Shown here in pieces: positions 36,140-57,038 of a DNA stretch of 64,000 nt. Location: assembly GCA_963827865.1 (NCBI GenBank), contig CAWHCO010000005.1:43068-107067 (forward strand), given 5' to 3'. This DNA comes from an uncultured bacterium. Lineage in GTDB: Bacteria; Actinomycetota; Acidimicrobiia; Spongiisociales; UBA4744. The notes beneath the pieces were generated by a model that was not told the DNA's origin, made no database searches, and saw nothing but the letters and a program-made list of their open reading frames with translations. The position numbers were made by a program, and so were the translations under genes. The first letter of the stretch is position 1, and every line of letters begins with the position of its first letter.

Positions 36140-36205
36140 TGCTGACTTCCCTCGACGGCTATGAATCCCGAATCCTACCCGCCGGTCGGTAGCATCGTCG
36201 CCAAG

Positions 36206-37633: not shown

Positions 37634-39836
37634 TCTCTGCGATGTCCTCCGGGTGAATAGGCAATCGCGTCACCGGCTTGCCCGTAGCGACACGAACCGC
37701 CGCCGCCACCGCGGCTGCCGAAGAGATCGACGGCAGCTCCGAGAATCCCTTGGCGCCGAACGGCCCCCATGAACTCGGCTGTTCCAGGACGACGGCCTCG
37801 ACCGGAGGCATATCCTCGATCGTCGGCAGGAGGTAGTCGGTGAACGTCGGATTCTTGATGACGCCGTTGTCGAGTATGACCTCTTCCATCAGTGCCATGC
37901 CGAATCCTTGCGCGATTCCGCCCTCGATCTGTCCGATCACCTGCATAGGGTTGAGAGCCTTCCCGACGTCTTGGGCCGTGTCGATTCTGACGACGCGGAC
38001 CAGCCCGAGGACCGGATCCACATCGACGACCGCCCGGTGAGCAGCGACGCAGAAGTCGACGTGGACGTCGCCTTGTCCGTTCTCGTCGGGCTCCTCGGTG
38101 GGAGCGTGCCGATAGCGGATCTCGCCAACGACCGGCCCCCCGGCGCACAGCTCAGGCCAAGTCGCGACGAGTCGACCATTTCGCCACACTCCCTCGTCAT
38201 CCATTTCGTCACCGCCCACTCGTTCGAGAGCGGCGGCACGAGCCCGCCGAGCGGCGTGCTCGACTGCGCCGCCGGTCATCTGGGTCTGTCTGGAGGCCGA
38301 CGAAGAGCCCGCTGAACCGATCTGTGAGGTGTCATCCCATGCGATCTCGACTCGTTCCAAGCCCAGGACGCTGCGCGCGATCTGGGCGAGGATCGTGATC
38401 ATGCCTTGTCCGACTTCGGCCGCGGCGGTGTGGACACGAGCACCGTCCGGAGTCAGTTCGACTCTCGCGTCTGCGTAGTCATCGAACGCCTCGGAAAACG
38501 CCAGGTTCTTGACTCCGACCGCATAGCCGATGCCTCGAACGACCGCGGAGGCCGGAGTCGTGAGACCCGTGCCGCCTGGCCGTCGATCGGTGTCCTCATC
38601 GGGCAATGGGATCGACATCACCGACCGGATGACCTCCTCGGTCGGAAGCGGATCGACGATTCGCTGACCTGTCGTCGCCAGCACGTCACCGGGACCGATG
38701 GCATTCTTCAATCGGAGTTCCAGTGGATCCATGTCTAGTGCAGCGGCGAGCCTGTCCATCTGCGCTTCATACGCGAAACAGACCTGATTGGCACCGAACC
38801 CTCGCATCGCCCCCGTCGGCGGGTTGTTGGTACGCACCGCATACCCCTCAACGAACACGTTGGGGCAGCGGTACGGTCCCGCAGCGAAGTACACGGCGTT
38901 TGCGATCACGGCCTCGGACGTGTTCGCATACGCACCACCATCCAACACGAGCTTCGCGTCGACCCTGACGAGCGTCCCGTCAGGATCTGCCTCGTGCCGG
39001 TACCACATGTGGGCGCTATGGCGCTTCACATGCCCGACGAAGCTCTCGTCTCGCCCATACACCATCTTGACGGGACGCCCCGTTCGCAACGCGAGCATGC
39101 ACAGGTGGGTGTGCAGGCTGAGGTCCTCTCTGGACCCGAACGCCCCGCCAAGACCCGTCGGGTGAACACGAAGCTGGTCGGACTCGAGTCCGAGACACCG
39201 AACGAGCTGCTCGTGGTCGACATGAATCCACTGCGACGGAGGGTAGAGGTCTACCCCACCAGACCCGTCCGGGACGGCAAGTCCTGCCTCGGTGCCCAGT
39301 GGCGCCTGGTCGATATTCGGCGTCTCGTAGTAGCCCTCGACGACGACTGCGCCGTGCGCTTCGTGGTCGCCCCGTCTCACCCGCATCTCTCTGAAGATCT
39401 CTCCAAGCTCAACCGCCTCTTCGAGATTCGTTGCGGGAGTCAGCGGCTCCACCTCGACACCGATCGCAGCGGCGGCCGCACGCGCCTGGTCTCGCGTCTC
39501 GGCAGCAACCAACGCGACGGCCTCGCCCCAGAAACGGATCTCTCCTTCGGCGAGAACCGGCTGGTCCTGCACGATCTGGCCCTGGTACTTGAAACCGGGC
39601 ACGTCACCCTGTGTGAGGACGGCGACGACCCCTTCCATGTCGAGCGCGGGTGTGACATCGATCGAGATGATCCGGGCACGGGGCGCGAACACCCTATGTG
39701 TGGCTCCCCACAGCATGGTCTTGGCACTGAGGTCGCCCACATACGCGAATGCCCCCGAGACCTTCGCGGCGCCGTCCGGTCGTCGAATGGACTCGCCCAC
39801 ACCTCCGCTCACGCGCCTCGATGTTCTCGCCGTCAC
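37626..39836 (-). CDS. Xanthine dehydrogenase family molybdopterin-binding subunit (set 1)
   Basis: 736 aa. a/b-hammerhead N-terminus (IRRPDGAAKVSGAFAYVGD), GLGGAFGSRED, GFGANQVCFAYE, IEGGIAQGFG. GTGA overlap with the FeS subunit. Confidence 0.9.
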   Translation of the reverse strand: MTARTSRRVSGGVGESIRRPDGAAKVSGAFAYVGDLSAKTMLWGATHRVFAPRARIISIDVTPALDMEGVVAVLTQGDVPGFKYQGQIVQDQPVLAEGEIRFWGEAVALVAAETRDQARAAAAAIGVEVEPLTPATNLEEAVELGEIFREMRVRRGDHEAHGAVVVEGYYETPNIDQAPLGTEAGLAVPDGSGGVDLYPPSQWIHVDHEQLVRCLGLESDQLRVHPTGLGGAFGSREDLSLHTHLCMLALRTGRPVKMVYGRDESFVGHVKRHSAHMWYRHEADPDGTLVRVDAKLVLDGGAYANTSEAVIANAVYFAAGPYRCPNVFVEGYAVRTNNPPTGAMRGFGANQVCFAYEAQMDRLAAALDMDPLELRLKNAIGPGDVLATTGQRIVDPLPTEEVIRSVMSIPLPDEDTDRRPGGTGLTTPASAVVRGIGYAVGVKNLAFSEAFDDYADARVELTPDGARVHTAAAEVGQGMITILAQIARSVLGLERVEIAWDDTSQIGSAGSSSASRQTQMTGGAVEHAARRARAAALERVGGDEMDDEGVWRNGRLVATWPELCAGGPVVGEIRYRHAPTEEPDENGQGDVHVDFCVAAHRAVVDVDPVLGLVRVVRIDTAQDVGKALNPMQVIGQIEGGIAQGFGMALMEEVILDNGVIKNPTFTDYLLPTIEDMPPVEAVVLEQPSSWGPFGAKGFSELPSISSAAAVAAAVRVATGKPVTRLPIHPEDIAEIS

Positions 39837-40276
39837 TGCACGCTCCTGACTGCCCTGATGATGGACCCATACCCGGTACAGCGACAGATGTTGCCTGCAA
39901 GGGACTCGCGGATCTCACCGTCGGTCGGGTGCGGGTTCTGATCGAGGAGGTGTGTGGCGGCGACGACGATTCCCGGCGTGCAGTAGCCGCACTGGACACC
40001 TCCCTCATCGAGGAGTGCCCCTTGCACCGGGGAGAGGCCCGCCTCGGGAGTCAACCCCTCCACTGTGACGATGTCGGCGCCCTCGGCATCGAGCCCCAAG
40101 ACGAGGCATGAGCACACAGGCTGCCCGTCCATCAAGATGGTGCACGAACCGCACTCGCCCTGCTCGCAGGCGTCTTTGCTCCCGGTTACACCGAGGTTCT
40201 CGCGCAGGACTCTCAGTAGGCTTTGCGCACCATCGACGGCCACTTCCGTCTCGATCCCGTTGAGTTGGAACCTCAT
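39833..40276 (-). CDS. (2Fe-2S)-binding subunit of xanthine dehydrogenase family enzyme (set 1)
   Basis: 147 aa. CEQGECGSCTILMDG, CGYCTPG, NICRCTGY. Confidence 0.9.
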   Translation of the reverse strand: MRFQLNGIETEVAVDGAQSLLRVLRENLGVTGSKDACEQGECGSCTILMDGQPVCSCLVLGLDAEGADIVTVEGLTPEAGLSPVQGALLDEGGVQCGYCTPGIVVAATHLLDQNPHPTDGEIRESLAGNICRCTGYGSIIRAVRSVQ

Positions 40277-41064
40277 AGCAAACGCTCCAGTGTGCGTCGT
40301 GCGATGACGCCTACTCCGTGCCGCCGGTATCGTGCAGTGGCCCGGTGGTCTGTGATCGGAGATGCCTCTTCCGACACGAGCCGTTGGAACTCATTGAGCG
40401 CCGCTTCGCTCGGCGATCGTTCTTCGGAGATCATCTCCTCGGCCCGCCGAGCCCTCGTCACCGTTGGCGCGACCGAACCGAGTGCGACGCGTGTCCTCCC
40501 GTCGGAGAATCGAGCAATGCACACCGATGCGATCGCAATCACCATCGCCGATCGGGTACCGATCTTCGAGAATCCCTGCCGCTCCGGCATGTGTAGGGGA
40601 AGCTTGACCCCAACGACAAGCTCGTCCGGCATCAGTGCTGTGCGTTTGACGCCAATGAAGAACTCGTCCCAGCGCAACTCCCTGGATCCGTTCACCGACC
40701 GGGTCACGATGCTCGCGTCGACAGCTGCGAGAAACGGGAGGGCGTCACCCGCGGGACTCGCCGTCCCGATGTTCCCTCCGATCGTTCCCACATTTCGGAT
40801 CTGGGGTGAACCGACCGTGCGAGCCGCCTCGGAGAGTCCAGGCCACGGGGAGCGTTCGAGGCGAGCATGCGTGACGCCGGCACCGATCCATTCCTCACTG
40901 ATTTCGGCGAGTTCATCGATCCGGCGCAGCGCCACGATCCTGGAGGGGTGACGGTGCCCGAAGTTGACCTCGACCATCAGGTCCGTCCCACCCGCGAGGC
41001 ACGTCGCGTCGCCATCGAGCGCCTGCACCGCGTCGTCGATCGTTGTCGGGAACTCGATGTGCAC
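40273..41064 (-). CDS. FAD-binding subunit (CoxM/XdhB-like) of xanthine dehydrogenase family enzyme (set 1)
   Basis: LAGGTDLMVEVNFG, GNIGTASPAGD. The track ORF reaches 41226 with an Arg/Pro-rich leader. The first in-frame start near the conserved N-terminus is the GTG at 41064 (VHIEFPTTIDDAVQAL). The start is uncertain. Confidence 0.75.
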   Translation of the reverse strand: MHIEFPTTIDDAVQALDGDATCLAGGTDLMVEVNFGHRHPSRIVALRRIDELAEISEEWIGAGVTHARLERSPWPGLSEAARTVGSPQIRNVGTIGGNIGTASPAGDALPFLAAVDASIVTRSVNGSRELRWDEFFIGVKRTALMPDELVVGVKLPLHMPERQGFSKIGTRSAMVIAIASVCIARFSDGRTRVALGSVAPTVTRARRAEEMISEERSPSEAALNEFQRLVSEEASPITDHRATARYRRHGVGVIARRTLERLL

Positions 41065-41126: not shown

Positions 41127-41792
41127 ATGGACATCGATGCGATCCTCGGGCAGTGCGAATCCGCGCTTGAAGAGAAGGGCCAGGTCGACATCGGTGCGTT
41201 GGGCTTCTGGAAGGCGGTAGGGGCACTCAAGCGAGACCAGCAGCTGGTGGCGCGCTATGGAAGTCGTGTCGCGGCAATCGACGAGGACGCGTTCTCTCGA
41301 TGGGCCGGTGTTCGGCTCCCGATCGTGGTCGGTATCGGCGGGATGCTGCTGCTGACCGTCGCTGGACTCGTGGCCGTCTCGATCGCCTACTACGTCGACG
41401 CACCGTGGAACGGTATCTGGGTGTTGGTCGGCACAGGGCTTCTCCTGGCCTCGACGCACACCCTCGCGCACTACATCGTCGGTCGGACGGTCGGGATCCG
41501 ATTCACCCACTGGTTCATCGGACCAAACCCCCAACCGGGCGTCAAGATCGACTACGCTACCTACCTCTCCACGCCACCACGTGCGCGGGCGTGGATGCAC
41601 GCATCGGGGGCGCTGGCCACGAAACTGGTCCCGTTTCTCAACATAGGGGCCGCGTGGGGTTCCCACTCTCCTGCGTGGACCACATGGGTACTTCTCCTTC
41701 TCGGCGCCGTGATGGTCACGACCGACGTCTTCCTGTCTACGAAGCAGTCGGATTGGAAGAAGTTCCGTAGAGAGATGCGCTACACCTCCTAG
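41127..41792 (+). CDS. Hypothetical multi-pass membrane protein
   Basis: 221 aa. A soluble N-terminal 60 aa is followed by 4-5 hydrophobic helices. It contains HTLAHYIVG. No family recognised. Confidence 0.5.
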   Translation: MDIDAILGQCESALEEKGQVDIGALGFWKAVGALKRDQQLVARYGSRVAAIDEDAFSRWAGVRLPIVVGIGGMLLLTVAGLVAVSIAYYVDAPWNGIWVLVGTGLLLASTHTLAHYIVGRTVGIRFTHWFIGPNPQPGVKIDYATYLSTPPRARAWMHASGALATKLVPFLNIGAAWGSHSPAWTTWVLLLLGAVMVTTDVFLSTKQSDWKKFRREMRYTS

Positions 41793-41949: not shown

Positions 41950-42945
41950 CTACATCGTAAGGACGGCTGCCCCCGCGACCCGGCCTTCGCGGAGGTCCAA
42001 GAGCGCTCGGTTCGCCTCCTCCAGCCGGTACTGCTGGACGACCGTCCTGATGGGGATCTCGGCGGCGAGCTGCAGGAATTCGCGCGCATCTTCCTTCGTG
42101 AAGTTGGCGACGCTGCGTATCTGTCGCTCCAGCCACAGGTGCCGGTAGTCGAATGCGGGCATCTCGTCGAGATGGATCGCGTTGATGGCGACCGCTCCTC
42201 CCCTATCGACCGCCTTCAGCGCCTGGACGACGACCGAGCCCACCGGTGCGAATGTCACGGCTGCGTCCAGTGACATCGGCGGCGGTTCGTCATACCCGCC
42301 TACCCAGACAGCGCCCATCTCGGTGGCCCTAGCCCGCTCTCCCTCGGACCTGGTGGCGACGTACACACTGCATCCCCAGTGCAGGGCAACCTGCAGGGAG
42401 AGCAGCGCCGACGCTCCGAATCCGTAGAGCCCGAGGCGACCTCCCGGTTGAATGCCTGACACCTTCAGTGCTCGGTAGCCGATCACTCCACCACACAGCA
42501 GCGGAGCGACGTCGACATCAGACACGCCTTCAGGAAGATGAAACGCGTACCCCGCATCGGCTGTCGCCTTCTCGGCATATCCGCCATCGCGGTCCCATCC
42601 GGTGAACACCGCCGACGTGCACAGGTTCTCGCGACCCGACCGGCAGAAGTTGCACCTGCCGCAACTCCCGCCGATCCAGCCAACACCCGCTCGCTCCCCC
42701 ACGCTCCACCCCTCCACGGCGTCACCGACTGCTGCGACCGCACCGACGATCTGATGTCCCGGTATCACCGGAACCCGGTGCGGCTCGATGTCGCCCTCAA
42801 CCTCCTGGAGGTCGGTACGACACACACCGCACGCCGTCACATCGAGCAACAGTTCTCCGGCCATTGGAACAGGATCGTCCGTATGTTCGAGGCGCAGCGG
42901 CTGTCGGTCGACTGGAGCCAGTTCGTACAGCAGCTGCGCACGCAT
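41950..42945 (-). CDS. Zinc-dependent alcohol dehydrogenase family oxidoreductase
   Basis: The start is taken at the ATG at 42945, 1 nt after the upstream stop; the track gives 43002. CGVCRTDL, GHQIVG, structural-zinc CGRCNFCRSGRENLC, and the GLYGFGASA Rossmann motif. Confidence 0.85.
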   Translation of the reverse strand: MRAQLLYELAPVDRQPLRLEHTDDPVPMAGELLLDVTACGVCRTDLQEVEGDIEPHRVPVIPGHQIVGAVAAVGDAVEGWSVGERAGVGWIGGSCGRCNFCRSGRENLCTSAVFTGWDRDGGYAEKATADAGYAFHLPEGVSDVDVAPLLCGGVIGYRALKVSGIQPGGRLGLYGFGASALLSLQVALHWGCSVYVATRSEGERARATEMGAVWVGGYDEPPPMSLDAAVTFAPVGSVVVQALKAVDRGGAVAINAIHLDEMPAFDYRHLWLERQIRSVANFTKEDAREFLQLAAEIPIRTVVQQYRLEEANRALLDLREGRVAGAAVLTM

Positions 42946-42946
42946 A

Positions 42947-44416
42947 TCAAAGCTCGGAGAGCAGCCCGGTCTTCTCGTTGAACGCCTCGATGTGACGATC
43001 AATTACGTCGACCTCCGACTGAACCGATGTCCAGTAGTCGTCGTCGTACCACTGAGCCTGAATCTCCTCGTAGGTCTTGCCCTGCTGCTCGACCCACGTG
43101 TAGTACTTGAGGTTGTGGATACGCATGCGACCTTGGTAGTCGAGTTCGACCATGGCGTCGGTTCCGACACCTCGCAGGTAGCGCTCGAACGCGACGACTG
43201 CGTCGTCCCGGGTGAAGGCACCGCGTTCTTCATTGAGCTCTCTCAGTCGTGACTCATACATCTCGACGGAGTCTGTCGCTACGGTCATCACGACGTCCTG
43301 GCCGGTCATCTGGTTCCACTTCGCGAACTTGATCGACGACAGCATGTTCGCAACGCTCGATATGCCGAGCTGAGGGAGTTCCTCCACGAAGGATGCGTCC
43401 ACACCTCGCTCGATCAGGTAGTCCTGACCGACCGGCTCGTTGAAGAGGCGCAAGATCTGCATGGTGGCTTCGTCATCGATAGCCGTTACGAAGTCGGTGT
43501 TCTTGACATTGTGGATCCACGGGACGTGCTTGTCGCCGATTCCTTCGATCCTGTGCGCGCCAAACCCGTTCTCCAGCAGCGTCGGGCACTGCAGGGCCTC
43601 GCTTGCGACGATCTTGGACGTCGGATACTGCTGCTTCATGTAGTCGCCGGATCCGATGGTCCCTGCCGACCCTGTGGTCAGCGCGACACCGCGGTACCGG
43701 TCCCCCGGTCCCATGATCTCTTCGAGGACCTCGACCATCGCGGGGCCGGTGATGGTGTAGTGCCAGAGGTAGTTGCCGAACTCATCGAACTGATTGAAGA
43801 TCACGACGTCCTCACCGGATCGACGGAGTTCCCACGTCTTGTCGAAGATCTCTTTGACGTTGCTCTCCGATCCGGGGGTCGCTATGACCTCGCCTGCGAC
43901 CTTTGACAACCACTCGAATCGTTCGCTGCTCATGCCCTCCGGGAGGATGGCGACGGACTCGCACGCGAGCAGATTCGAGTCGTAGGCTCCGCCGCGGCAG
44001 TAGTTTCCGGTCGATGGCCACACGGCCTTCTGGCTGGTTGGATCGAACTGGCCGGTCACCAATCTCGGCACGAGACACCCGAATGCGGCCCCGACCTTGT
44101 GCGCTCCCGTCGGGAACCATTTGCCGACCAACGTCACGATACGGACCGGAACACCGGTGAGAGCGGACGGGTACTCGAGAAAGTTCACGTCCCCATACCC
44201 TCCCCCGCTCGGCACAGGCTCGTTCTTCCACGTGATCCTGAACAGGTTGATCGGATCCAGGTCCCACAGGCCGACGCTGCCGAGTTTCGCTTTGATCGAT
44301 TCGGGTACCAGTCCCGGATCGCGCTGCTGGGCGAATGTCGGAATGATGATGTTGCGCTCGCGCGCCCTCTGAACTGCCCGTCCTAACGGCGCCTCGTGGA
44401 TGGTGAGGTCGATCAC
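42947..44416 (-). CDS. Fold-type II (tryptophan synthase beta-like) PLP-dependent enzyme, 489 aa, unknown specificity
   Basis: GKWFPTGAHKVGAAFG (candidate PLP lysine), TGNYCRGGAYDS, GSAGTIGSGDY. It has a long N-terminal extension (NLFRITWKNEP). The GTG start forms a GTGA overlap with the upstream gene. Confidence 0.7.
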   Translation of the reverse strand: MIDLTIHEAPLGRAVQRARERNIIIPTFAQQRDPGLVPESIKAKLGSVGLWDLDPINLFRITWKNEPVPSGGGYGDVNFLEYPSALTGVPVRIVTLVGKWFPTGAHKVGAAFGCLVPRLVTGQFDPTSQKAVWPSTGNYCRGGAYDSNLLACESVAILPEGMSSERFEWLSKVAGEVIATPGSESNVKEIFDKTWELRRSGEDVVIFNQFDEFGNYLWHYTITGPAMVEVLEEIMGPGDRYRGVALTTGSAGTIGSGDYMKQQYPTSKIVASEALQCPTLLENGFGAHRIEGIGDKHVPWIHNVKNTDFVTAIDDEATMQILRLFNEPVGQDYLIERGVDASFVEELPQLGISSVANMLSSIKFAKWNQMTGQDVVMTVATDSVEMYESRLRELNEERGAFTRDDAVVAFERYLRGVGTDAMVELDYQGRMRIHNLKYYTWVEQQGKTYEEIQAQWYDDDYWTSVQSEVDVIDRHIEAFNEKTGLLSEL

Positions 44417-45642
44417 GGAATCTCCAGTCTGTCGATCACTGCCTTTGCGGCATCCAATGTGGGTTCGATCGTGTACGGCTCGGCACCCGCCATGCCCGCG
44501 GCGCGCACCGCAGATGCGACGTCCTTGAGGCCGCTCCCCGTGTTGAGCACGACGACACTGTCTGACTCGGTCAGCACTCCTAGCTCACGCGCCTGTAGAA
44601 AGCCTGCGTAGGCCGCGGCACCCGCCGGTTCGCCGAACACGCCGCTCGCCCGGGCCATCGTGGGAATCGCATCGAGGATCTGATCATCCGACACGGTCAC
44701 GTACGCACCTTCCGTTTCCACGACCGCCGCCATCGCCTTGATGCGGTCGCGTGGAAGGCCGGCCGAGATCGAGTCGGCCACCGTCGTCGCTTCGATCGAC
44801 GGCTTGGTCAGCACGTCCTCGCCGTTGGCCCAGGCTTCGGCGAGGTAGTTGCTCCCGGCTGCCTGAGCGCCGATCAGTCGGGGCACACGGTCGATCCAAC
44901 CGAGTTCGAGAAGGTCCTTGAAGCCTTTGTGCAGCCCCCCGATGATGCATCCGTCTCCGACACTCACAACGACGGCGTCTGGCACGTGCCAGCCGAGTTG
45001 CTCTGAGATCTCGTACGCCGCGGTCTTCTTGCCTTCGGTCATGTACGGGTTGTACGCGGTGTTGCGGTTGTACCAGCCGTACTGCCCCGCGACCTCGAGA
45101 CATAGCTCGAATGCATCGTCGTAGGTGCCCTGAACCGTGAATACGGTGGAACCGAACACGAGAAGTTGCGCGATCTTCGCCTGCGGGGCAGACGCCGGCA
45201 CGAAGATGACGTTCCGCTGTCCAACCGATGCCGAGATGCCTGAGAGCGCTGCTGCCGCGTTGCCGGTCGACGCGGTCGTGACGATCTCTGCTCCGCGCTC
45301 CTTCGCCTTCACGACGGCGATTGCGCTCGCGCGATCCTTGAACGATGCCGTCGGCTCGCGTCCGTCATCCTTGATCCAGGTCCCGGAACCAACCTCGTAC
45401 ATCGGTGTCCAACCGATGGTGAGGGGCGGAACCTCGGCGTCAGGACTTATCGGGAGCAGTGGTCGGTACCGCCACATCGACCAGTCGGACCCGAGTCGGT
45501 CTCGATCAACGGTCTCCCGCAAGGAGTCGTAGTCGTAGATGACGTCGAGAATGCCTTCATTACCGTGTTCGGGACAGACGTACTCGACTTCGTCCGGCTC
45601 GTACACCGTCCCGCAAATGACACAGCGAAGCCCGATGATCAT
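44413..45642 (-). CDS. Threonine synthase-like PLP enzyme with N-terminal zinc ribbon
   Basis: The ATG at 45642 forms an ATGA overlap with the carbamate kinase stop. 409 aa. CVICGTVYEPDEVEYVCPEHG, PTASFKDRASA, ASTGNAAAA. The track ORF 44413-46452 has a 270-aa Arg-rich false extension. Confidence 0.8.
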   Translation of the reverse strand: MIIGLRCVICGTVYEPDEVEYVCPEHGNEGILDVIYDYDSLRETVDRDRLGSDWSMWRYRPLLPISPDAEVPPLTIGWTPMYEVGSGTWIKDDGREPTASFKDRASAIAVVKAKERGAEIVTTASTGNAAAALSGISASVGQRNVIFVPASAPQAKIAQLLVFGSTVFTVQGTYDDAFELCLEVAGQYGWYNRNTAYNPYMTEGKKTAAYEISEQLGWHVPDAVVVSVGDGCIIGGLHKGFKDLLELGWIDRVPRLIGAQAAGSNYLAEAWANGEDVLTKPSIEATTVADSISAGLPRDRIKAMAAVVETEGAYVTVSDDQILDAIPTMARASGVFGEPAGAAAYAGFLQARELGVLTESDSVVVLNTGSGLKDVASAVRAAGMAGAEPYTIEPTLDAAKAVIDRLEIP

Positions 45643-46592
45643 CTCGTGATCCGTGTCCCTGTCTCGCCTCGCACCGCCCGCTCGATGTTCTCGGGGTTCG
45701 TGATGATGACTTCGGTACCGCCGGCGTCGAGGTACATGATCGCCGCCTCGATCTTGGGGGCCATGCTTCCTTTGGCGAAGTGCACGCCTTCGGCGAGGTA
45801 CTGTCTCGCCTCCTCGAGCGTCATTGAGCCCACCCAACGCTGTCCGGGGGTCCCCCAGCCGAGGGCGACCTGCTCCACCGCGGTTGAGATGAGCAGAAGA
45901 TCTGCGCCAAGCTCCCCTGCCAGGAGCGCGGACGCGCGATCCTTGTCGATCACCGCGGAAACACCTTTGAGCCAGCCGCCCGGTTCGGAGACGACGGGGA
46001 TCCCGCCACCGCCGACACAGATGACGGCCATGCCTTGTCCGAGCAGACCACGAATGGCGTCGATCTCGACGATTCGTTTCGGCTGTGGTGACGCGACGAC
46101 CCGCCGCCAGCCTCTGCCAGCGTCCTCCACGACCTCCCATCCATCGGACGAGCGCCGCAGTTCGGCGGTGTCCTCGTCCATGAACGATCCGATCGGCTTT
46201 GACGGATGTTCGAATGCGGGGTCGGCCGCATCGACCTCGACCTGGGTGACCACGGTTGTGACGGTCTTGTCGATTCCAAGGGCGAGGAAGTCGTTGTAGA
46301 GGTTCTGCTGGAGGGCGTAGCCGATCGCACCTTGGGTGTCGGCACCGCAGGCGTCGAGCGGAACTTCGTGCAGCTCTCCCCGCGCGAGTTCGGACCGACG
46401 GAGTATGAATCCGACCTGCGGCCCGTTCCCGTGGGTGATCGCGACGTCCCACCCTTCCTTGATCAGTTCTGCGATGTGGTGGTCCGTCTCTCCCGCGGCC
46501 TTGTACTGGTCCTCGACTGTGGAGTGCTCGCTGTCTTTGATCAACGAGTTGCCGCCGATCGCCACCACCGCCAGTTTCGTGTTGCTCAACAC
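45639..46592 (-). CDS. arcC: Carbamate kinase
   Basis: 317 aa. LAVVAIGGNSL, ITHGNGPQVG, VCVGGGGIPV, and a C-terminal family pattern. Confidence 0.9.
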   Translation of the reverse strand: MLSNTKLAVVAIGGNSLIKDSEHSTVEDQYKAAGETDHHIAELIKEGWDVAITHGNGPQVGFILRRSELARGELHEVPLDACGADTQGAIGYALQQNLYNDFLALGIDKTVTTVVTQVEVDAADPAFEHPSKPIGSFMDEDTAELRRSSDGWEVVEDAGRGWRRVVASPQPKRIVEIDAIRGLLGQGMAVICVGGGGIPVVSEPGGWLKGVSAVIDKDRASALLAGELGADLLLISTAVEQVALGWGTPGQRWVGSMTLEEARQYLAEGVHFAKGSMAPKIEAAIMYLDAGGTEVIITNPENIERAVRGETGTRITR

Positions 46593-46618
46593 CGTCTCCT
46601 TCTGGAGGATGGCTCGAC

Positions 46619-47593
46619 CTACATGGTCAGAGCCATCACCGCTTTCTGTGCGTGCAGCCTGTTCTCCGCCTGGTCGAAGACGACACTGTGTGGACCGTCG
46701 ATCACACCGTCTGTGACCTCGATGTTGCGGTCGGCCGGCAGCGGATGCATGTAGATGGCGTCTTCGCTTGCGAGCGCCATCCGGCGCTCGTCGGTGATCC
46801 AGTCCGTGTACTTGTCGCCGATCGCCTTCGACTTCGCGTCGTCGGTTGTCGTCAGCATCGCACCCCAGCTCTTGGCATACACCACGTCCGCACCGCGAAA
46901 CCCATCATCGAAATCCTCGACGATCTCGAACGAGCCGTGCGCCCTGCGAGCGTTCTCCTCTGCCTGAGCCACGATTTCGGGCATCAGCTTGAACTCAGGG
47001 GGACGAGTCAACCGAACGTTCATCCCGAAACGGGTGGCCAGCAGGATGAGGCTCTGCGGCACACTCAGCGGCTTCTGGTAGCTGGATGCGTACGCATAGC
47101 TCACGTTGATCGTCTTGCCGCGAGGATCGCCCTTCTTCTCGATGATCGTCATCAGGTCGGCGAGGATCTGGTGTGGGTGGTAGATCTCGCACTGCATATT
47201 GAGCACGGGCACTCTGCTCGCCTCTGCGACCGCTCGCTGGTACTCGTTGCCGACTCCCCAGTCGACCTGCCGGATGGCGATGCCGGCGCTGTACCGTCCG
47301 AGGATCTCACCGATTTCGGTGGCGGTATCCCCATGGCTGATTTGAGTCGTCCGGGACTCCATGAACATGGCGTGCCCACCGAGCTGCGCCATGCCGGCCT
47401 CGAAGCTCGCCCTCGTCCGCGTGCTCGAGAAGAAGAACAGCATTGCGAGCACCTTGTCGCGCAGGTACGCGTGCGGCTCGCCGAGCGCCTGCTTGCGCTT
47501 CAAGTCGAACGCGACGTCCATCACCGTGTCGATCTCGTCCTTGGTCCACTCCTGGGTCGTGATCATGTCACGACCCCTCAATCCCGTCTGCAT
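46619..47593 (-). CDS. Ornithine carbamoyltransferase-family protein (atypical substrate motifs)
   Basis: 324 aa. STRTRASFE, HPHQILAD, C-terminal MHPLPADRNIEVTDGVIDGPHSVVFDQAENRLHAQKAV. SWG replaces the OTCase SMG loop and HPLP replaces HCLP. The RBS is AAGGAG. Confidence 0.85.
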   Translation of the reverse strand: MQTGLRGRDMITTQEWTKDEIDTVMDVAFDLKRKQALGEPHAYLRDKVLAMLFFFSSTRTRASFEAGMAQLGGHAMFMESRTTQISHGDTATEIGEILGRYSAGIAIRQVDWGVGNEYQRAVAEASRVPVLNMQCEIYHPHQILADLMTIIEKKGDPRGKTINVSYAYASSYQKPLSVPQSLILLATRFGMNVRLTRPPEFKLMPEIVAQAEENARRAHGSFEIVEDFDDGFRGADVVYAKSWGAMLTTTDDAKSKAIGDKYTDWITDERRMALASEDAIYMHPLPADRNIEVTDGVIDGPHSVVFDQAENRLHAQKAVMALTM

Positions 47594-47607
47594 CGTTGGC
47601 TCCTTGC

Positions 47608-47640
47608 AGTCTTCAGTCTTCAGTCATCAGTCTTCAGTCC
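47608..47640. repeat. Tandem heptamer array CAGTCTT x 4.7 in the gap between the two carbamoyltransferase genes
   Basis: CAGTCTT CAGTCTT CAGTCAT CAGTCTT CAGTCC. A partially complementary array, GAGAACT GAGAACC, lies at 47690-47703 after a GC-rich spacer. Confidence 0.7.
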
Positions 47641-47706
47641 GGAACGACGGAACCTCGGCCGCCGACGCGTCTACCGACGACCGAAAACCGAGAACTGAGA
47701 ACCGTT

Positions 47707-48660
47707 CTACTCCATCGCTCCCAGCACGAGGGCAAGGAGGGACATGCGCATCACCACACCGTTGTACGCCTCCTGCCAGTAGCGAGCGTACTTGGTGGCA
47801 TCGACATCGGGCGGCAACTCATCCATGCGAGGCAGCGAGTGCAAGATGATCGCATCCGACTTCGCCTTCTCCGCGAGGAGTTTCCTGGTCACCTTGTAGT
47901 TGTCGGGCGTGAGACCCGTCTCAACCGCGCGTTCGTCGCGCCCCTTCGTGTAGTCGGCCTGCACGACGGGCTCCATGTAGATCACGTCCGCCTCGGCGAT
48001 CACGTCGGCAACGTGGTCGGCCGTCCTCACAAAAAGGTTCTGCTCCGCGAGTTCCGCCTTGAACTCCTCGGTCAATGACATCTCAGGTGGCGCCACCGAG
48101 ATCATCTGGGCGTCGAATTGTGTGAGCGCGTACCCGAGCGAGTGCATGGTTCGCATCCGCATGTCACCGATCGCCACGAAGGTGAGCCCGTCGATCGTTC
48201 CCTTCTCGACGAGCACCGTATACAGATCGGTGAGGACCTGAGTCGGATGTTCCCCCCACCCGTCCCCGGCGTTGATGACCGGAACGCTCGACCACTTGGC
48301 GGCCTCCTGCGGTGCACCCTGCTGGAAGTGCCGCATGACGATGACGTCGCCGTAGTACTCCAGCATGTGCACGGTGTCCTTGATCGATTCCTGGTAGAAG
48401 TCACCTGCACGCGTCATCTTGGCGTCGGAGAATCCCAGCACGTGGCCTCCGAGCCGATGCATCGCCGCCTCATGGGCCATGCGTGTTCGCGTCGACGGCT
48501 GGTAGAAGGCTGTCAGCAGAGTCTTGTCCGACAACAGATCAGTGTTCCGACGTTCACGAGCGATCGGCTCCAGCTCGGACGCGGTCTCGAATACGTGCTC
48601 GAACTCTGCCCGTTCGAAGCCCTTCAGCGACAGGATGTCCCGGCCGGCGAAGCTCCTCAT
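47707..48660 (-). CDS. Aspartate carbamoyltransferase-like protein (PyrB paralog)
   Basis: ATG at 48660 behind AAGGAGAG. 317 aa. PSTRTRMAHE, VINAGDGWGEHPTQ, LHSLPRMDELPPDVD, and a C-terminal YNGVVMRMSLLALVL. There is no adjacent pyrI or pyrC. Confidence 0.8.
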   Translation of the reverse strand: MRSFAGRDILSLKGFERAEFEHVFETASELEPIARERRNTDLLSDKTLLTAFYQPSTRTRMAHEAAMHRLGGHVLGFSDAKMTRAGDFYQESIKDTVHMLEYYGDVIVMRHFQQGAPQEAAKWSSVPVINAGDGWGEHPTQVLTDLYTVLVEKGTIDGLTFVAIGDMRMRTMHSLGYALTQFDAQMISVAPPEMSLTEEFKAELAEQNLFVRTADHVADVIAEADVIYMEPVVQADYTKGRDERAVETGLTPDNYKVTRKLLAEKAKSDAIILHSLPRMDELPPDVDATKYARYWQEAYNGVVMRMSLLALVLGAME

Positions 48661-48773: not shown

Positions 48774-49901
48774 GTGGAGGGTAGGAAGCGGACGAACCTG
48801 AGGCTCCTGTCGCTCGCCGGGAGCCTCTTCCCTGTGATTGCTGTCCTCGCCGCGCTCCTGGTCGGCGCTTTCATGCTGCTCATCCTGGGAGCAGATCCCC
48901 TCAAGGGTTTCGGCGCCATGATCGACGGAGCTTTCGGTGGGGTCCGCCAACTCTCGGATACCGCAGCGAAGGCGGTCCCGCTGCTCCTCGTCGGTGTCGG
49001 TATCACGATCGCGTTCCGGGCGAACGTGATCAACATCGGCGGCGAGGGCCAGATCGTTCTCGGCGCACTCTTCTCGACAGGAGTCGCACTCCTCTTGCCG
49101 AACCTGCCAGGTTGGCTGCTGTTGCCGGGCGTGTTGATCGCAGGCTTCGTGGGCGGTGCGCTGTGGGGAGCGATCCCAGGCGCGTTGAAGGCCTACTTCA
49201 ACGTGAACGAGATCCTCAGCACGATCATGCTCAACATCGTCGCCGTGCAGATCATGAACTTCCTCCTCCAGGGACCTTGGATGGACCCGGTGGAGCTTCG
49301 ACGCGGCAGCCGCATCCCACAGACCACCCGGCTCCCGCATCAGGCCGACCTCCCGCTGTTGATCAGGAACTCCCGTCTCAACATCGGACTCATCATCGCG
49401 ATCGTGGCGGCGGTCATCGTCTACGTCTTCCTTTGGCGTATGACCGAAGGCTTTCGGATTCGGGCCGTCGGCTTCAACCCGTTCGCATCGCGATACGCAG
49501 GCATGCAGGTACAGCATCGGGTCGTGCTCGCGCTCACACTATCCGGCGCGTTGTGTGGTCTCGCCGGTGCGATTCTCGTGTTCGGGAGTGAGGCACACCG
49601 TTTCGTGACAGACGGTTCGGCCACGGGATTCACGGGCAGCGCCGGCTTCAACGGAATCGTCGCCGCCCTCTTCGGAGGTCTCCATCCCGTCGGCACGATC
49701 CCCGCATCGCTTCTGTTCGGTGCCCTCCTGGTTGGGGCGAACAAGCTCCAGCGGGTCGTCCAGGTGCCGGCCGCCCTGATCGTGGCACTCAACGGCCTCA
49801 TCGTGGTGTTCGTTGTCAGCGCGGCAATCTGGAAACGGCGTCTCACACACCGAATTCAGTTGATCACCTCTCGGGCAAACGAGACAAGGGACGAGCCATG
49901 A
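48774..49901 (+). CDS. ABC transporter permease (BMP/nucleoside-type system)
   Basis: 375 aa polytopic membrane protein with the pattern of the sugar/nucleoside ABC permease family (NIGGEGQ, GFNGIVAALFG). Confidence 0.85.
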   Translation: MEGRKRTNLRLLSLAGSLFPVIAVLAALLVGAFMLLILGADPLKGFGAMIDGAFGGVRQLSDTAAKAVPLLLVGVGITIAFRANVINIGGEGQIVLGALFSTGVALLLPNLPGWLLLPGVLIAGFVGGALWGAIPGALKAYFNVNEILSTIMLNIVAVQIMNFLLQGPWMDPVELRRGSRIPQTTRLPHQADLPLLIRNSRLNIGLIIAIVAAVIVYVFLWRMTEGFRIRAVGFNPFASRYAGMQVQHRVVLALTLSGALCGLAGAILVFGSEAHRFVTDGSATGFTGSAGFNGIVAALFGGLHPVGTIPASLLFGALLVGANKLQRVVQVPAALIVALNGLIVVFVVSAAIWKRRLTHRIQLITSRANETRDEP

Positions 49902-50830
49902 GTGAGTTCTTCTCGGCTGCGGCGCTCGTCACCACCATCGGAGCAGGCATTCGGTACGCGACCTCGTACCTGTATGCGGCGCTCGGCGAGACGTTCGGCC
50001 AGCGCAGTGGCGTGCTGAACCTCGGCGTTGACGGAATCATGCTCCTCGGAGCCTTCGGCGCCTACTACGTGGTCCTCGAGACCGGCAACTTGTGGCTGGC
50101 CCTTTTCATCGCTGCCGTCATCGGGCTGGTGATGGGACTCGCCATGGCATTCGCGAGCGTCACCTTGCAGGCGGAGCAAGGCATCAGCGGCATCGGTTTC
50201 TACCTCTTCGGCCTGGGTATGAGCGACCTCCTGTTTCAGAAACTCGTCGGTACACCGCGGCCTATCAGCGGATTCCCAGACGTCCACATCCCGTGGCTCA
50301 GTGACATCCCGGTCGTCGGTCCCCTCATCTTCTCCCACAGCCTGATCGTGTACGGAGCATTCCTGCTGGTCCCGATCGGAACGTTCGTCCTCAATCGCAC
50401 CACGATCGGGCTGAAGATCCGATCGGCCGGAGAGAACCCGGCCGCCGTCGACACGCTCGGAGTCTCGGTCGCAAGAGTCCGCTATGGAACGGTCATGTTC
50501 GGGAGCATGCTGGCAGGTATCGGGGGCGCCGCCCTCACGACGGAACTCGGCATCTTCCAGCAGAACCTCACCGCCGGCCAAGGCTTCATCGCCGTCGCCC
50601 TCGTCTACTTCGGAGCTTGGAGACCGGTGGGCGTGATGTACGGGGCGCTTCTGTACGGCCTCGTCGCGTCGATCGTCTCTCAGCTGAAGACCCTCGGGAT
50701 CATCCCGCGCTCGGTGTCGGACCTCGCGTCGATGCTTCCGGCCGTGATCACGATCCTCGCGCTCGTCGTCGTCGTTCAGCGGGAACGGCAGCCGGCGGCA
50801 CTCACAAAACCATACCAACGAGGGGGCTAG
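49898..50830 (+). CDS. ABC transporter permease (BMP/nucleoside-type system)
   Basis: 310 aa with an ATGA overlap with the preceding permease. LNLGVDGIMLLGAF, IRSAGENPAAVDTLGVSV. Confidence 0.85.
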   Translation: MSEFFSAAALVTTIGAGIRYATSYLYAALGETFGQRSGVLNLGVDGIMLLGAFGAYYVVLETGNLWLALFIAAVIGLVMGLAMAFASVTLQAEQGISGIGFYLFGLGMSDLLFQKLVGTPRPISGFPDVHIPWLSDIPVVGPLIFSHSLIVYGAFLLVPIGTFVLNRTTIGLKIRSAGENPAAVDTLGVSVARVRYGTVMFGSMLAGIGGAALTTELGIFQQNLTAGQGFIAVALVYFGAWRPVGVMYGALLYGLVASIVSQLKTLGIIPRSVSDLASMLPAVITILALVVVVQRERQPAALTKPYQRGG

Positions 50831-50847
50831 CCCCCGGAAGGAGCAAC

Positions 50848-51876
50848 ATGAGACGACTCACCGTGACCGGCATCGTGGTGCTGGTGTTCGCGCTGGTTGC
50901 CGCCGCCTGCGGTGGCGGAGCTACAACCACGACCGCGGCACCGGGCACGACCACACCACCGACCGAGCCACTGAAGGTGGCGATGGTCGCCCCGAGCGCG
51001 GTCAACGACCTCGCGTTCAGCCAGAGCATGTACGACGCCCTGCTGGCAGTACAGGAGGAGATGGGTGGCGAGTCGGCGATGCAGATCGCATACTCGGACA
51101 ATCTGTTCGTCGTCGACGACGCCGCTGCAGCGATCCGTGACTACGCCAATGAGGGATACGACTTGGTGATCGCCCATGGTTCCCAATTCGGCTCGTCCCT
51201 CCAGGAGATCGCACCCGACTACCCGGACACCGCATTCGCGTGGGGAACCGCAGGTGACACGTTCGGCCTCGCGAACGTGTTCGCCTACGAGGCGGCCTCT
51301 GAGGAAGGCGGGTACGTCGAAGGTGTGATGGCCGCGGCGCTCTCCACGTCGGGCGTGCTCGGTGTTATCGGCCCCATCGAGGTCGGTGACGCAGCCCGCT
51401 ATGTCAACGGGTTCGTCGCCGGCGCGACGGCCCAGAACCCGGCGATCGACGTGAAGGTGAACTACACCGGTTCGTTCAGCGACGTTGCCCTTGCGGCGAC
51501 GGCTGCGAATACCGAAATCGCGGCGAGCGCCGACGTGTTGACCGGCACGGCCCAGATGGTCACCGGCGCCGTGGGTGTCGCCAAGGACGCCGGCGTTCCG
51601 TGGTTCGGTACGCAGGCGGACCAGACACAGCTCGCCCCGTCGATCGTTGTCGCGTCGCAGGTGTACCACTGGGAAGTGGTCGTCAAGCAGATCATCGACC
51701 TGATGAACCAAGGCACGATGGGTGATCAGTCCTTCGTGATCAATCTCTCCAACGGTGGTGAGGCGATCGCGTACAACCCCGGCTACTCACTGCCGGACGA
51801 TGTAAAGCAGCTGGCCGAAGACACCGTCAAGGGAATCTCCGACGGCTCGATCAACCCGCCACGACCAGGCTCGTAA
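50848..51876 (+). CDS. BMP-family ABC substrate-binding lipoprotein (purine nucleoside receptor-like)
   Basis: ATG at 50848 behind GGAAGGAG. Signal peptide with lipobox LVAAAC, a Thr/Pro linker, then the BMP/PnrA-like pattern (VAMVAPSAVNDLAFSQS, IAHGSQFG). Confidence 0.85.
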   Translation: MRRLTVTGIVVLVFALVAAACGGGATTTTAAPGTTTPPTEPLKVAMVAPSAVNDLAFSQSMYDALLAVQEEMGGESAMQIAYSDNLFVVDDAAAAIRDYANEGYDLVIAHGSQFGSSLQEIAPDYPDTAFAWGTAGDTFGLANVFAYEAASEEGGYVEGVMAAALSTSGVLGVIGPIEVGDAARYVNGFVAGATAQNPAIDVKVNYTGSFSDVALAATAANTEIAASADVLTGTAQMVTGAVGVAKDAGVPWFGTQADQTQLAPSIVVASQVYHWEVVVKQIIDLMNQGTMGDQSFVINLSNGGEAIAYNPGYSLPDDVKQLAEDTVKGISDGSINPPRPGS

Positions 51877-51886
51877 GGAGACGACG

Positions 51887-53458
51887 ATGCACCCCCAGGG
51901 AACCGACTCCACGTCCGTTGGCATCGATCTCGAGATGCGCGGCATCGTGAAGCGGTTCCCCGGGGTGCTCGCCAATGACCACGTCGATTTCGACGTCCGC
52001 CGTGGAGAGGTCCACACACTCCTCGGAGAGAACGGAGCCGGCAAGTCCACCTTGATGAAGATCCTGTACGGGCTCCAACAGCCCGATGACGGCGAGATAT
52101 ACATCGACGGCAGGCCGGTCGTGATCTCCTCTCCCAGCGACGCGATCGACCATGGCATCGGCATGATCCACCAGCACTTCATGCTCGTCGAAACCATCAC
52201 GGTCGCCGAGAACGTCGCTCTGGGTCTGAAGTCCTCTCGGGGACCGCTCCTCGAACTCGACGTCGTCTCGAAGCGCATCGAGGAGCTATCCAAGGCGTAC
52301 GGCATCAAGGTCGATCCGAGAGCGTATGTGTGGCAGCTCTCGGTCGGTGAGCAGCAGCGGGTGGAGATCATCAAAGCCCTCTATCGCAACGTCTCGCTGC
52401 TCGCCCTCGATGAACCCACCGCGGTGCTGACCCCGCAGGAGGTCGACGATCTGTTCGTGACGCTCAGGCGGATGGCGGCCGAAGGTCATCCCCTGATCTT
52501 CATCTCTCACAAGCTCCACGAAGTGCTGGACATCAGTGATCGGATCACCGTGCTTCGCAACGGCCGCAGGATCGGCACAGTCCCCAAGGAGGGAGCCACA
52601 AAGGCAAGCCTCGCGTCGATGATGGTCGGCCGCGAAATGTTGCTCGAACGTGAACACAAGCCCGCCGAGATCGGCGCCCCCCGACTCCAGGTGCAAGGCC
52701 TGAGAGCCAAGAACGATCGGGGACTCGACGCGTTGGATGGCGTCGACCTCGAGGTCAGGTCAGGTGAGATCCTCGCGATCGCGGGCGTTTCGGGCAACGG
52801 ACAGCAGGAACTCGCCCAGGTGATCGCCGGGCTGCGACCGGCGACCGAAGGAAAAGTACTCCTCGACGGCGTCGACGTGACCACGTGGAAGACACGAGAC
52901 CGTCGGCGTGTGGGCCTCGCCTACATCCCAGAGAAGCGCATGCGCGACGGCGCCGTCCAGCAGTTCACCGTCGCCGAGAACCTGATGTTGCACGACTACG
53001 ACAAGCTCCCGTTCGCGAAGCGGAGTTTCCTCGACTTCGCGGCGATCGAGGAACACTGCGACGAGCTGATCGAGGCTTTCAACGTGAAGACGCCCTCACA
53101 GAAAACACTGCTGAGCGCCTTGTCGGGCGGCAACATCCAGAAGGCGATCCTCGCCCGGGAGCTGTCAGGAAACCCGAAGGTGCTCATCGCAGCACAACCG
53201 ACACGTGGTGTCGACATCGGAGCCACCGAGTACATCCATCAACGGCTCCTCGACCAACGGTTCATCCACGAGAAGCTCCTCGATCAACGCAAGGCCGGCA
53301 CCGCAACCTTGCTCATTTCCGAGGATCTCGACGAGATCCTGGTTCTCGCCGATCGAATCGCGGTCATGTACGAGGGCCGGATCATGGGCATCGTCGACAG
53401 CGACGATGCCACAGTCGAACAACTCGGCCTGATGATGGCAGGCGTGGCAGAGGATTGA
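51887..53458 (+). CDS. ABC transporter ATP-binding protein, duplicated ATPase domains
   Basis: 523 aa. Walker [10 protein letters not shown] and GVSGNGQQE; signature [11 protein letters not shown] and [11 protein letters not shown]. Confidence 0.9.
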
Positions 53459-57025: not shown

Positions 57026-57038
57026 ACTCACACTCCTA

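Follow-up and report, generated by a model that had tools for sequence, protein, structure and literature searches.

A six-gene operon of an uncultured acidimicrobial lineage as a candidate doubly phosphorolytic lower half of reductive uric acid degradation

Here, we analysed a 64,000-nt stretch of contig CAWHCO010000005.1 (the window in the following) from the uncultured UBA4744 lineage of the Acidimicrobiia (assembly GCA_963827865.1). Its minus strand carries an operon of six open reading frames (ORFs), which code for an aspartate carbamoyltransferase-like (ATC-like) protein, an ornithine carbamoyltransferase-like (OTC-like) protein, a carbamate kinase, a threonine synthase-like (ThrC-like) enzyme dependent on pyridoxal 5'-phosphate (PLP), a second PLP enzyme of 489 residues (PLP489) and a zinc-dependent dehydrogenase (Zn-ADH). 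We propose, with a probability of roughly 0.6, that this operon encodes a variant form of the lower half of uric acid degradation by the reductive (2,8-dioxopurine) route and that it is doubly phosphorolytic, i.e. that both ureido groups of the ring-opened purine are split with phosphate. The operon sits within a purine-catabolic island of about 29 kb, which extends from about 35.1 kb to just beyond the end of the window. An earlier note made from the sequence alone had taken the six genes for a catabolic, purine-linked unit that serves neither pyrimidine nor arginine metabolism. This view is borne out by a context which its reader had not seen: a YgfK-type protein, an SsnA-like protein, an XdhD-like enzyme and a second and third enzyme of the xanthine dehydrogenase (XDH) family.

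The reductive pathway was established by two studies in 2025 (PMC12507026; bioRxiv 10.1101/2025.04.24.650524). Its gene cluster in Escherichia coli comprises xdhD-ygfM, ygfK, ssnA, hyuA, ygeW, yqeA, ygeY and ygeX, and the cluster also occurs in C. sporogenes. According to these studies, XdhD-YgfM reduces urate to 2,8-dioxopurine, which is further reduced by YgfK and, following ring opening by SsnA, gives a ureidomethyl-hydantoin that HyuA converts to 2,3-diureidopropionate (DUPA). YgeW then cleaves one ureido group of DUPA with phosphate, YqeA uses the resulting carbamoyl phosphate to form ATP, YgeY hydrolyses the other ureido group to leave 2,3-diaminopropionate (DAP), and YgeX, a diaminopropionate ammonia-lyase, turns DAP into pyruvate. 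The two groups differ on the ureido group that is attacked by YgeW, a question which a commentary calls open, and the published intermediates were proposed to have R (D) configuration. The earlier note had postulated that opening of the purine ring yields a di-ureido intermediate and that PLP enzymes then act on a C3 skeleton, and the DUPA of the published pathway fits this proposal. Its statement that the gene combination was undescribed holds for the combination, not for the pathway itself, which was published in 2025. Already known are the pathway, the class of ATC-like paralogues (since 2013) and the classical pairing of a catabolic carbamoyltransferase with carbamate kinase. We found no description in the literature of a doubly phosphorolytic lower pathway, of a short carbamoyltransferase related to ornithine and acetylornithine carbamoyltransferases (OTCases and AOTCases) in the role of YgeW, or of a ThrC-like/PLP489 pair in the role of YgeX.

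The operon opens with the ATC-like gene (47707-48660, on the minus strand as all six genes; 317 aa, pseudo-ATCase type), whose ATG at 48660 is preceded by a GAAAGGAG ribosome-binding site. An intercistronic spacer of 113 bp (47594-47706) separates it from the gene of the short OTC/AOTC-like carbamoyltransferase (46619-47593; 324 aa), the positional equivalent of YgeW, which in turn lies 26 bp upstream of the gene for a carbamate kinase of the YqeA/ArcC type (45639-46592). The ThrC-like gene (44413-45642; 409 aa) follows and overlaps the stop codon of the carbamate kinase gene in an ATGA, the gene of the fold-type II PLP enzyme PLP489 (42947-44416) with a GTGA overlap with the ThrC-like gene, and the gene of the Zn-dependent alcohol/aldehyde dehydrogenase (41950-42945; adh_fam_2) after a gap of 1 nt. 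This arrangement had been described in the earlier note and was reproduced by the ORFs as well as by an independent gene call, which yields the same six genes on identical DNA of the metagenome-assembled genome GCA_964431765.1 (uncultured Acidimicrobiia); the family assignments were upheld in NCBIfam and Pfam. Neither pyrI, pyrC, arginine-biosynthesis genes nor arcA/arcD were found across the 64-kb window, again as claimed before, nor was any other pyr, arg or arc gene. The order ATC-like, OTC-like, carbamate kinase, ThrC-like and PLP489 recurs in many species of several phyla and is therefore no chance arrangement.

The spacer between the two carbamoyltransferase genes had been noticed earlier for its repeats, and it indeed holds two tandem arrays of 7-nt units, CAGTCTT (4.7 copies) and ACCGAGA (3.6 copies), which are mutually complementary. 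They fold into a hairpin of about 30 bp that ends just before the ribosome-binding site of the OTC-like gene (minimum free energy -52.3 kcal/mol, z -2.47). In one relative (L004), one repeat unit is gone from both arms and the hairpin is therefore kept. An Rfam scan of the region from 33 to 64 kb revealed no riboswitches.

Which parts of the published pathway surround the operon? With the pathway proteins of E. coli MG1655 as queries against the window (tblastn, 1e-5), clear counterparts were obtained for YgfK, SsnA, XdhD and YqeA. HyuA and YgeY gave no match at this threshold in the window and none in the continuation of the contig, and YgeX has no homologue in either, its sole match being 28% identity over 128 aa of the ThrC-like protein. 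The upper pathway is therefore present, HyuA, YgeY and YgeX are missing, and the six genes occupy the place expected for the lower pathway. The YgfK-type Fe-S flavoprotein (53603-57121, minus strand) scores 908 bits with TIGR03315 (cut-off 835); its full-length identity with E. coli YgfK amounts to 33%. Adjoining it lies the gene of a short SsnA-like amidohydrolase (57039-58061, minus strand; 340 aa) with SsnA as its best family, which is 32% identical to residues 56-438 of E. coli SsnA and reaches 263 bits with NF005540, below the cut-off of 444. Compared to the E. coli protein of 442 aa, some 55 residues are missing at the N-terminus together with further segments, and the same length of 340 aa was found in two independent metagenome contigs (L085 and L087). 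The XdhD/YgfM-like enzyme (60723-64000, plus strand) consists of a FAD subunit (60723-61538), a 2Fe-2S subunit with its end at 62002 and, starting at about 61992, a Mo subunit that is 42% identical to E. coli XdhD. The end of the window cuts the Mo subunit gene, which codes for 767 aa in full; on the longer contig, the island stops right after it.

The OTC-like protein stays below every curated NCBIfam cut-off: it reaches 264.5 bits (cut-off 306) and 249 bits (cut-off 280.85) with the OTCase models, 255.6 bits with the AOTCase model NF003384 (cut-off 288) and 174 bits with the YgeW model TIGR03316 (cut-off 500). Its identity amounts to about 39% with both Pyrococcus furiosus OTCase and Xanthomonas campestris AOTCase, compared to 34% with YgeW and 30% with ArgI, and its C-terminal domain, which binds the second substrate, is nearest to X. 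campestris AOTCase (42%), followed by YgeW (37%). HPLP and SWG had been reported before in this protein and were found in the motifs YMHPLPADRN and YAKSWGA, the SWG thus standing in a KSWG context. The protein carries sequence hallmarks typical of the knotted carbamoyltransferase class: the proline-rich loop region and the lysine motif DVVYAKSWGA, both of which it shares with X. campestris AOTCase. It differs from this class in having HPLP rather than HCLP, in lacking the context of an arginine cluster (no arg genes were seen near it) and in lacking the extra helices of YgeW. With 324 aa compared to the about 396 aa of YgeW, it is not a YgeW orthologue. The neighbouring carbamate kinase passes the cut-offs of NF009007 (385.8 bits; cut-off 266) and TIGR00746 (362.6 bits; cut-off 358.25) and is 49% identical to E. 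coli YqeA. Carbamate kinases convert carbamoyl phosphate and ADP to ATP. We consider with fair confidence that the OTC-like protein and the carbamate kinase are the functional counterpart of YgeW and YqeA.

The family of the ATC-like protein is labelled aspartate carbamoyltransferase in public annotation. The protein scores 255.1 bits with TIGR00670, just above the cut-off of 236.95, and 228.9 bits with NF002032, below the cut-off of 263. It retains the carbamoyl-phosphate site (STRTR, R105 and HPTQ) as well as R167. Invariant in 14 orthologues are the replacements S80R and K84Y, HSLP instead of HPLP, and an insertion of 8 aa that breaks the R229-x-Q231 aspartate motif. The protein is thus devoid of K84 and RxQ, by which aspartate carbamoyltransferases bind aspartate. 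It thereby carries the signature by which Barba et al. 2013 (PMC4016543) defined the pseudo-ATCases: STRT and HPTQ are retained, RxQ is absent, the motif is HSLP, and the genes around it, ygeW-like and xdh genes among them, are not those of pyrimidine synthesis. In common with these proteins, it is an ATC-like paralogue annotated as PyrB and encoded beside carbamate kinase or purine genes. Of the pseudo-ATCases, only subgroup 1 was assayed; it carries an HPLA motif and includes the ureidoglycine carbamoyltransferase of Rubrobacter, for which allantoate is the substrate; the window protein has HSLP in place of this HPLA. Subgroup 2, from Nocardioides JS614, adjoins a ygeW homologue, xdhABC and hyuA, and no function was proposed for it (PMC4016543). 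Follow-up work on pseudo-ATCases was not found in the literature. Among the best 120 metagenomic clusters, which cover Acidimicrobiia and Chloroflexota, identities range from 81 to 96% for the ATC-like protein and from 73 to 100% for PLP489; such high conservation suggests either strong constraint or a recent horizontal spread of the module.

The ThrC-like enzyme reaches 172.2 bits with TIGR00260, just above the cut-off of 167.1, and 287.7 bits with NF006050, below the cut-off of 303. It carries an N-terminal Cys3-His/Asp ribbon and keeps the PLP lysine in an SFKDR motif. The residues T88, S155, R160 and N188 (Thermus thermophilus numbering), which are reported by Omi 2003 and Murakawa 2011 to form the substrate-phosphate site of threonine synthase, are invariant among four solved threonine synthases. 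Among 47 ThrC-like orthologues, T88 is replaced by Ala (47/47), S155 by Thr (45/47), R160 by Met or Thr (46/47) and N188 by Asp (47/47), N191 gives way to Ile, Val or Thr, and R242 mostly to Ser. The enzyme shares with threonine synthase the fold-type II PLP fold and the catalytic lysine, while T88, R160 and N188 are replaced, and use of O-phosphohomoserine is therefore very unlikely. The Asp that is newly acquired in all orthologues would be well matched to a substituent of cationic or ureido type.

For PLP489, more than 8000 family sequences were scored, whose members are 61-84% identical across most of the phyla sampled. Lys107 lies within a near-invariant GAHKVGA motif, and the Asn-loop STGNY is conserved. 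No NCBIfam family was reached at its cut-off (80.5 bits with the CysK model, cut-off 350.95), no close solved structure was found, and relatives at a distance of 32-46% identity matched no named family. A first AlphaFold prediction from a shallow alignment (pLDDT, the predicted confidence, 61.5) was discarded, and a more diverse alignment gave a model with a pLDDT of 89.8. The model predicts a core resembling CysK and cystathionine beta-synthase (CBS) at about residues 80-390 with helical N- and C-terminal extensions, and its best Foldseek matches are cysteine synthases, CBS, beta-cyanoalanine synthase (CAS), SbnA and O-ureidoserine synthase (target TM score of about 0.8 at 18-25% identity). 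PLP489 thus shares fold, PLP lysine and Asn-loop with cysteine synthase and CBS and differs in terminal extensions of about 80 and 100 residues. The earlier note had suggested a comparison with OrtB-type, cysteine synthase-like and diaminopropionate ammonia-lyase enzymes: of these candidates, the CysK/CBS-type fold stood, with no named family to place the protein in, whereas OrtB was rejected as there is no OrtB match, and diaminopropionate ammonia-lyase as there is no similarity to YgeX.

For a comparative survey, 80 genome loci were collected via PLP489, of which 79 were kept after dropping a duplicate from the source lineage, and the window proteins as well as the E. coli proteins were mapped onto them. 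Of the 79 loci, 58 have a ThrC-like gene no more than 10 kb away from PLP489, usually directly upstream. Carbamate kinase was found in 35 loci, the OTC-like protein in 32, HyuA in 20 (some 2 kb away from PLP489) and the Bmp transporter in 18. XDH Mo subunits and the ATC-like protein are encoded in 17 loci each, SsnA in 10, YgeY in 9 and YgfK in 6; YgeX was found in 0 of these 79 PLP489-anchored loci. Directly downstream of the OTC-like or YgeW gene, carbamate kinase is encoded in 25 loci. The position directly upstream is taken by the ATC-like gene in 16 cases, by YgeY in 6 and by other genes in 4, and is undeterminable in 8 on account of a contig edge. An OTC-like or YgeW gene is present in 33 loci, of which 16 contain the ATC-like gene and eight contain YgeY, with no case of co-occurrence (one-sided Fisher test without phylogenetic correction, p = 0.0018). 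In 13 loci, a gene for a regulator of the GntR type lies ahead of the module.

In five otherwise canonical clusters, the ThrC-like/PLP489 pair stands at the place of YgeX. A locus of the Terriglobia (L040) combines the pair with SsnA, XdhD, YgeY, YgfK and a true YgeW (67-69% identity), and one of the Halanaerobiales (L058) with HyuA, YgeY and an OTC-like carbamoyltransferase. In a desulfobacterotal locus (L093), YgeY, YgeW (63% identity), ThrC-like and PLP489 genes follow in a row with a HyuA-like gene nearby, and a cluster of the Calditrichota (L091) likewise carries the pair. The fifth, from the Bipolaricaulia (L092, 5175-14622), is a compact run of nine genes without XDH or HyuA that encodes a luciferase-like (F420-type) reductase, SsnA, the ThrC-like enzyme, an M20/M28 peptidase, PLP489, carbamate kinase and two OTC-like carbamoyltransferases; this composition agrees with the F420 variant that PMC12507026 mentions for Chloroflexota.

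Following the E. coli model, the island may work as follows. By homology to the E. coli enzymes, deaminases and XDH-family enzymes would channel purines via urate to 2,8-dioxopurine, whose ring would be reduced and opened by the YgfK-type and SsnA-like proteins, with DUPA or a cyclic precursor as the expected product. The OTC-like protein would then do the job of YgeW and the ATC-like protein that of E. coli YgeY, each splitting one ureido group with phosphate, and carbamate kinase would turn both carbamoyl phosphates into ATP, i.e. two per urate instead of one. Finally, the ThrC-like enzyme and PLP489 would remove the C3 diamino acid in the place of YgeX, most simply as pyruvate and ammonia, and this removal would pull the unfavourable phosphorolyses forward. 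We have fair confidence that the ATC-like protein replaces the hydrolase YgeY and that both ureido groups of DUPA end up as carbamoyl phosphate and ATP, and moderate confidence that the ThrC-like/PLP489 pair stands in for YgeX in disposing of the diaminopropionate skeleton, a DAP-lyase role that is suggested by the positional replacement of YgeX. As to regiochemistry, the parent families, which carbamoylate alpha- and omega-amino groups, weakly point to the alpha (2-) ureido group for the ATC-like protein and to the 3-ureido group for the OTC-like protein, an assignment that would agree with the order given by Liu et al. for YgeW and YgeY. The alternation of the ATC type with YgeY and of the ornithine type with YgeW likewise favours the action of YgeW on the 3-ureido and of YgeY on the 2-ureido group.

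Several observations weigh against this proposal. The ATC-like protein passes the NCBIfam cut-off for aspartate carbamoyltransferases (TIGR00670). A hydantoinase/dihydropyrimidinase of the HyuA type is absent from the whole purine island (35144-64000 of the window), and a search for a substitute hydantoinase in other Acidimicrobiia loci returned only unrelated genes; either this step is encoded elsewhere or the intermediates are unlike those of E. coli. YgeX alone suffices in E. coli, whereas the proposal calls for two PLP enzymes here. The bipolaricaulial cluster described above has an M20 peptidase and two carbamoyltransferases, and the alternation of the ATC-like protein and YgeY therefore misses some of the variation in ureido cleavage. 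PLP489 was also found alone in housekeeping neighbourhoods, i.e. in loci of the Cloacimonetes (L089) and Aminicenantes (L094), where it is about 62% identical and has no ThrC-like, carbamoyltransferase or purine gene within 10 kb, and in about twelve long genome loci. Hence, the pathway cannot be the only source of its substrate, and the ThrC-like enzyme is not its obligate partner; evidently, PLP489 has a role outside the module as well. Besides, the loci were sampled via PLP489, so the absence of YgeX from them is conditional on this sampling, and many come from related Anaerolineae, so the counts are inflated.

There is a real chance that new chemistry is hidden in the PLP pair. Rather than deaminating DAP in a plain manner, the two enzymes could lead to an end product or follow an order of steps unlike that of E. 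coli, for instance by beta-replacement to serine or cysteine, by elimination of urea from albizziin, or by racemisation of a D-intermediate prior to lysis. We regard this as unlikely, although the nearest folds of PLP489 are beta-replacement enzymes and neither dehydratases nor YgeX, two enzymes take the place of a single one of E. coli, an R (D) configuration was proposed for the intermediates in the literature, and PLP489 also occurs alone. A locus with an aminotransferase and a 2-hydroxyacid dehydrogenase (L033) and the coupled dehydrogenase of the window speak in the same direction; however, these neighbours are not conserved, nothing points to a nucleophile or a different product, and DAP removal is the simplest role that matches the positional replacement of YgeX. 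A bolder version, to which we give a modest chance, holds that the pair performs PLP chemistry new to purine catabolism and that clusters without HyuA also differ in their route to the open-chain ureides. Possible reactions are a stereo-inversion coupled to beta-elimination of D-diaminopropionate, or a beta-replacement or urea elimination on a mono-ureido intermediate to give serine or another product. If true, the module of Acidimicrobiia and Chloroflexota would be a biochemically distinct lower pathway, beyond a non-orthologous replacement of enzymes.

Other readings concern the carbamoyltransferases or the operon as a whole. Conceivably, only the OTC-like protein takes part in urate breakdown and the ATC-like protein is a catabolic carbamoyltransferase for another ureido compound that shares the carbamate kinase. 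Candidates are carbamoyl-aspartate derived from orotate or pyrimidines and, by analogy to Rubrobacter, ureidoglycine/allantoate. The score above the ATCase cut-off, the action of a related pseudo-ATCase on allantoate/ureidoglycine and the fact that a catabolic ATCase was already postulated in the literature would fit; still, this reading seems rather improbable to us given the loss of the aspartate-binding K84 and RxQ, the HSLP motif in place of the HPLA of the Rubrobacter group, the absence of uricase, allantoinase and dihydroorotase from the window, and the alternation with YgeY at the same position. Far less credible is an anabolic module for a natural product, in which DAP would be made and carbamoylated to give ureido amino acids of the albizziin type: the fold of PLP489 resembles SbnA and O-ureidoserine synthase, and DAP-carbamoylating carbamoyltransferases are known from antibiotic pathways, but there are no genes for non-ribosomal peptide synthetases or tailoring enzymes, the neighbouring genes code for importers, deaminases and XDHs as well as YgfK, SsnA, HyuA and YgeY, the carbamate kinase belongs to the ArcC/YqeA type, and the module is spread over fermentative environmental lineages. 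Least probable of all is that ordinary biosynthetic pyrB, argF, thrC and cysK genes cluster here by chance. Public annotation does list aspartate carbamoyltransferase and cysteine synthase, and two of the proteins exceed NCBIfam equivalog cut-offs by a few bits. Against this stand the replaced substrate-binding residues of the ATC-like and ThrC-like proteins, the scores of the OTC-like protein and PLP489 far below the cut-offs, the translational coupling to carbamate kinase and a synteny with XDH, YgfK, SsnA, HyuA and YgeY that is kept across phyla. Pyrimidine catabolism of the Pyd type and the oxidative allantoin route were rejected on gene content.

The island shares with the E. coli cluster the XdhD-like enzyme, YgfK, the SsnA-like protein, a carbamoyltransferase beside carbamate kinase, terminal fold-type II PLP enzymes and the surrounding purine deaminases and importers. 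It differs in the lack of HyuA, YgeY and YgeX, an SsnA shorter by about 100 residues, a short OTC/AOTC-like carbamoyltransferase for the 396-aa YgeW, the ATC-like protein at the place of YgeY and two non-orthologous PLP enzymes at that of YgeX. In the variant of Clostridioides difficile, UacX stands for YgfK and the hydrolase UacY for YgeW/YqeA. It shows the cleavage of the ureido groups to be where the pathway varies in evolution; it is, however, fully hydrolytic and gains no ATP from the ureido groups, while the variant in the window is the opposite, being predicted to be fully phosphorolytic. The energy logic, phosphorolysis of a ureido group followed by formation of ATP from carbamoyl phosphate and ADP, is that of the arginine and agmatine deiminase pathways. 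Unlike these, the window contains no deiminase or antiporter, neither carbamoyltransferase reaches the cut-offs for OTCases or putrescine carbamoyltransferases (PTCases), and two carbamoyltransferases of different branches are proposed to act in series on one molecule.

If the proposal is correct, two ATP and not one can be gained per urate from the ureido groups by substrate-level phosphorylation in anaerobic uricolysis, which alters the energetics assumed for purine fermenters. It concerns four very large families, whose metagenomic members number in the thousands and share 61-96% identity across phyla. At present, they carry the labels aspartate carbamoyltransferase, ornithine carbamoyltransferase, threonine synthase and cysteine synthase, which would introduce errors into reconstructions of the metabolism of Chloroflexota, Acidimicrobiia, Desulfobacterota and others. 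The published neighbourhood survey worked with categories at the Pfam level (PF00185 and PF00291), and surveys of this kind, in which PF00185 stands for YgeW and PF00291 for YgeX, conceal the variant by merging families. The 'gut' urate pathway would be placed in lineages of sediments and wastewater, and alternative enzymes would be on offer for engineered uricolytic probiotics.

The remaining genes of the island complement this picture. At its left end lies the gene of an adenosine/adenine deaminase (35144-36139, minus strand; 513 bits with NF006850, cut-off 419), followed on the plus strand by that of an 8-oxoguanine-deaminase-type amidohydrolase (36161-37633; 677 bits with NF006055, cut-off 532), which on the basis of this assignment would supply urate to the pathway. 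The latter was also considered as a hydantoinase, a candidate that was rejected in favour of the 8-oxoguanine deaminase type. A three-subunit XDH-like enzyme (37626-41064, minus strand; pucD-like, 733 bits) consists of FAD (40273-41064), 2Fe-2S (39833-40276) and Mo (37626-39836) subunits, and a fused 2Fe-2S/Mo enzyme of the selenium-dependent xanthine dehydrogenase type (58081-60639, minus strand) reaches 836 bits with TIGR03311 (cut-off 830). Together with the XdhD-like enzyme, three separate XDH-family enzymes are encoded in one island; selenium-cofactor genes of the selD, yqeB and yqeC type were not seen in the window. Divergent from the operon runs a gene set for a nucleoside-type (Bmp/PnrA) ABC importer (48774-53458, plus strand) with two permeases, a binding protein and an ATPase. 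At the 3' border of the operon, a convergent gene on the plus strand (41127-41792), situated between the operon and the XDH genes, codes for a multi-pass membrane protein of 221 aa, which had no family match and is conserved with 79-81% identity in the closest relatives.

The Zn-ADH scores 380 bits with TIGR02822 (cut-off 283.5). Its membership in the operon, as assumed in the earlier note, holds for the coupling observed here and not for conservation, as the gene occurs in only 2 of the 79 related loci. Being coupled yet not conserved, it is therefore treated as accessory; it is a lineage-specific add-on of the Acidimicrobiia. In the actinomycetotal locus L033 (2595-4947), an aminotransferase and a 2-hydroxyacid dehydrogenase of the glycerate/hydroxypyruvate type are encoded beside the OTC-like gene. 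These neighbours and the coupled Zn-ADH hint that some lineages pass the C3 product through the reduction of an aldehyde or keto acid. In loci of the Anaerolineae (e.g. L027, L049, L061 and L077), a glycosyltransferase-2 gene lies between the ThrC-like and PLP489 genes, which in one such lineage are about 1 kb apart with the glycosyltransferase gene in between. The same loci encode a conserved 190-aa protein with no assigned function between PLP489 and HyuA, and a gene for the selenocysteine elongation factor SelB is located about 7 kb downstream.

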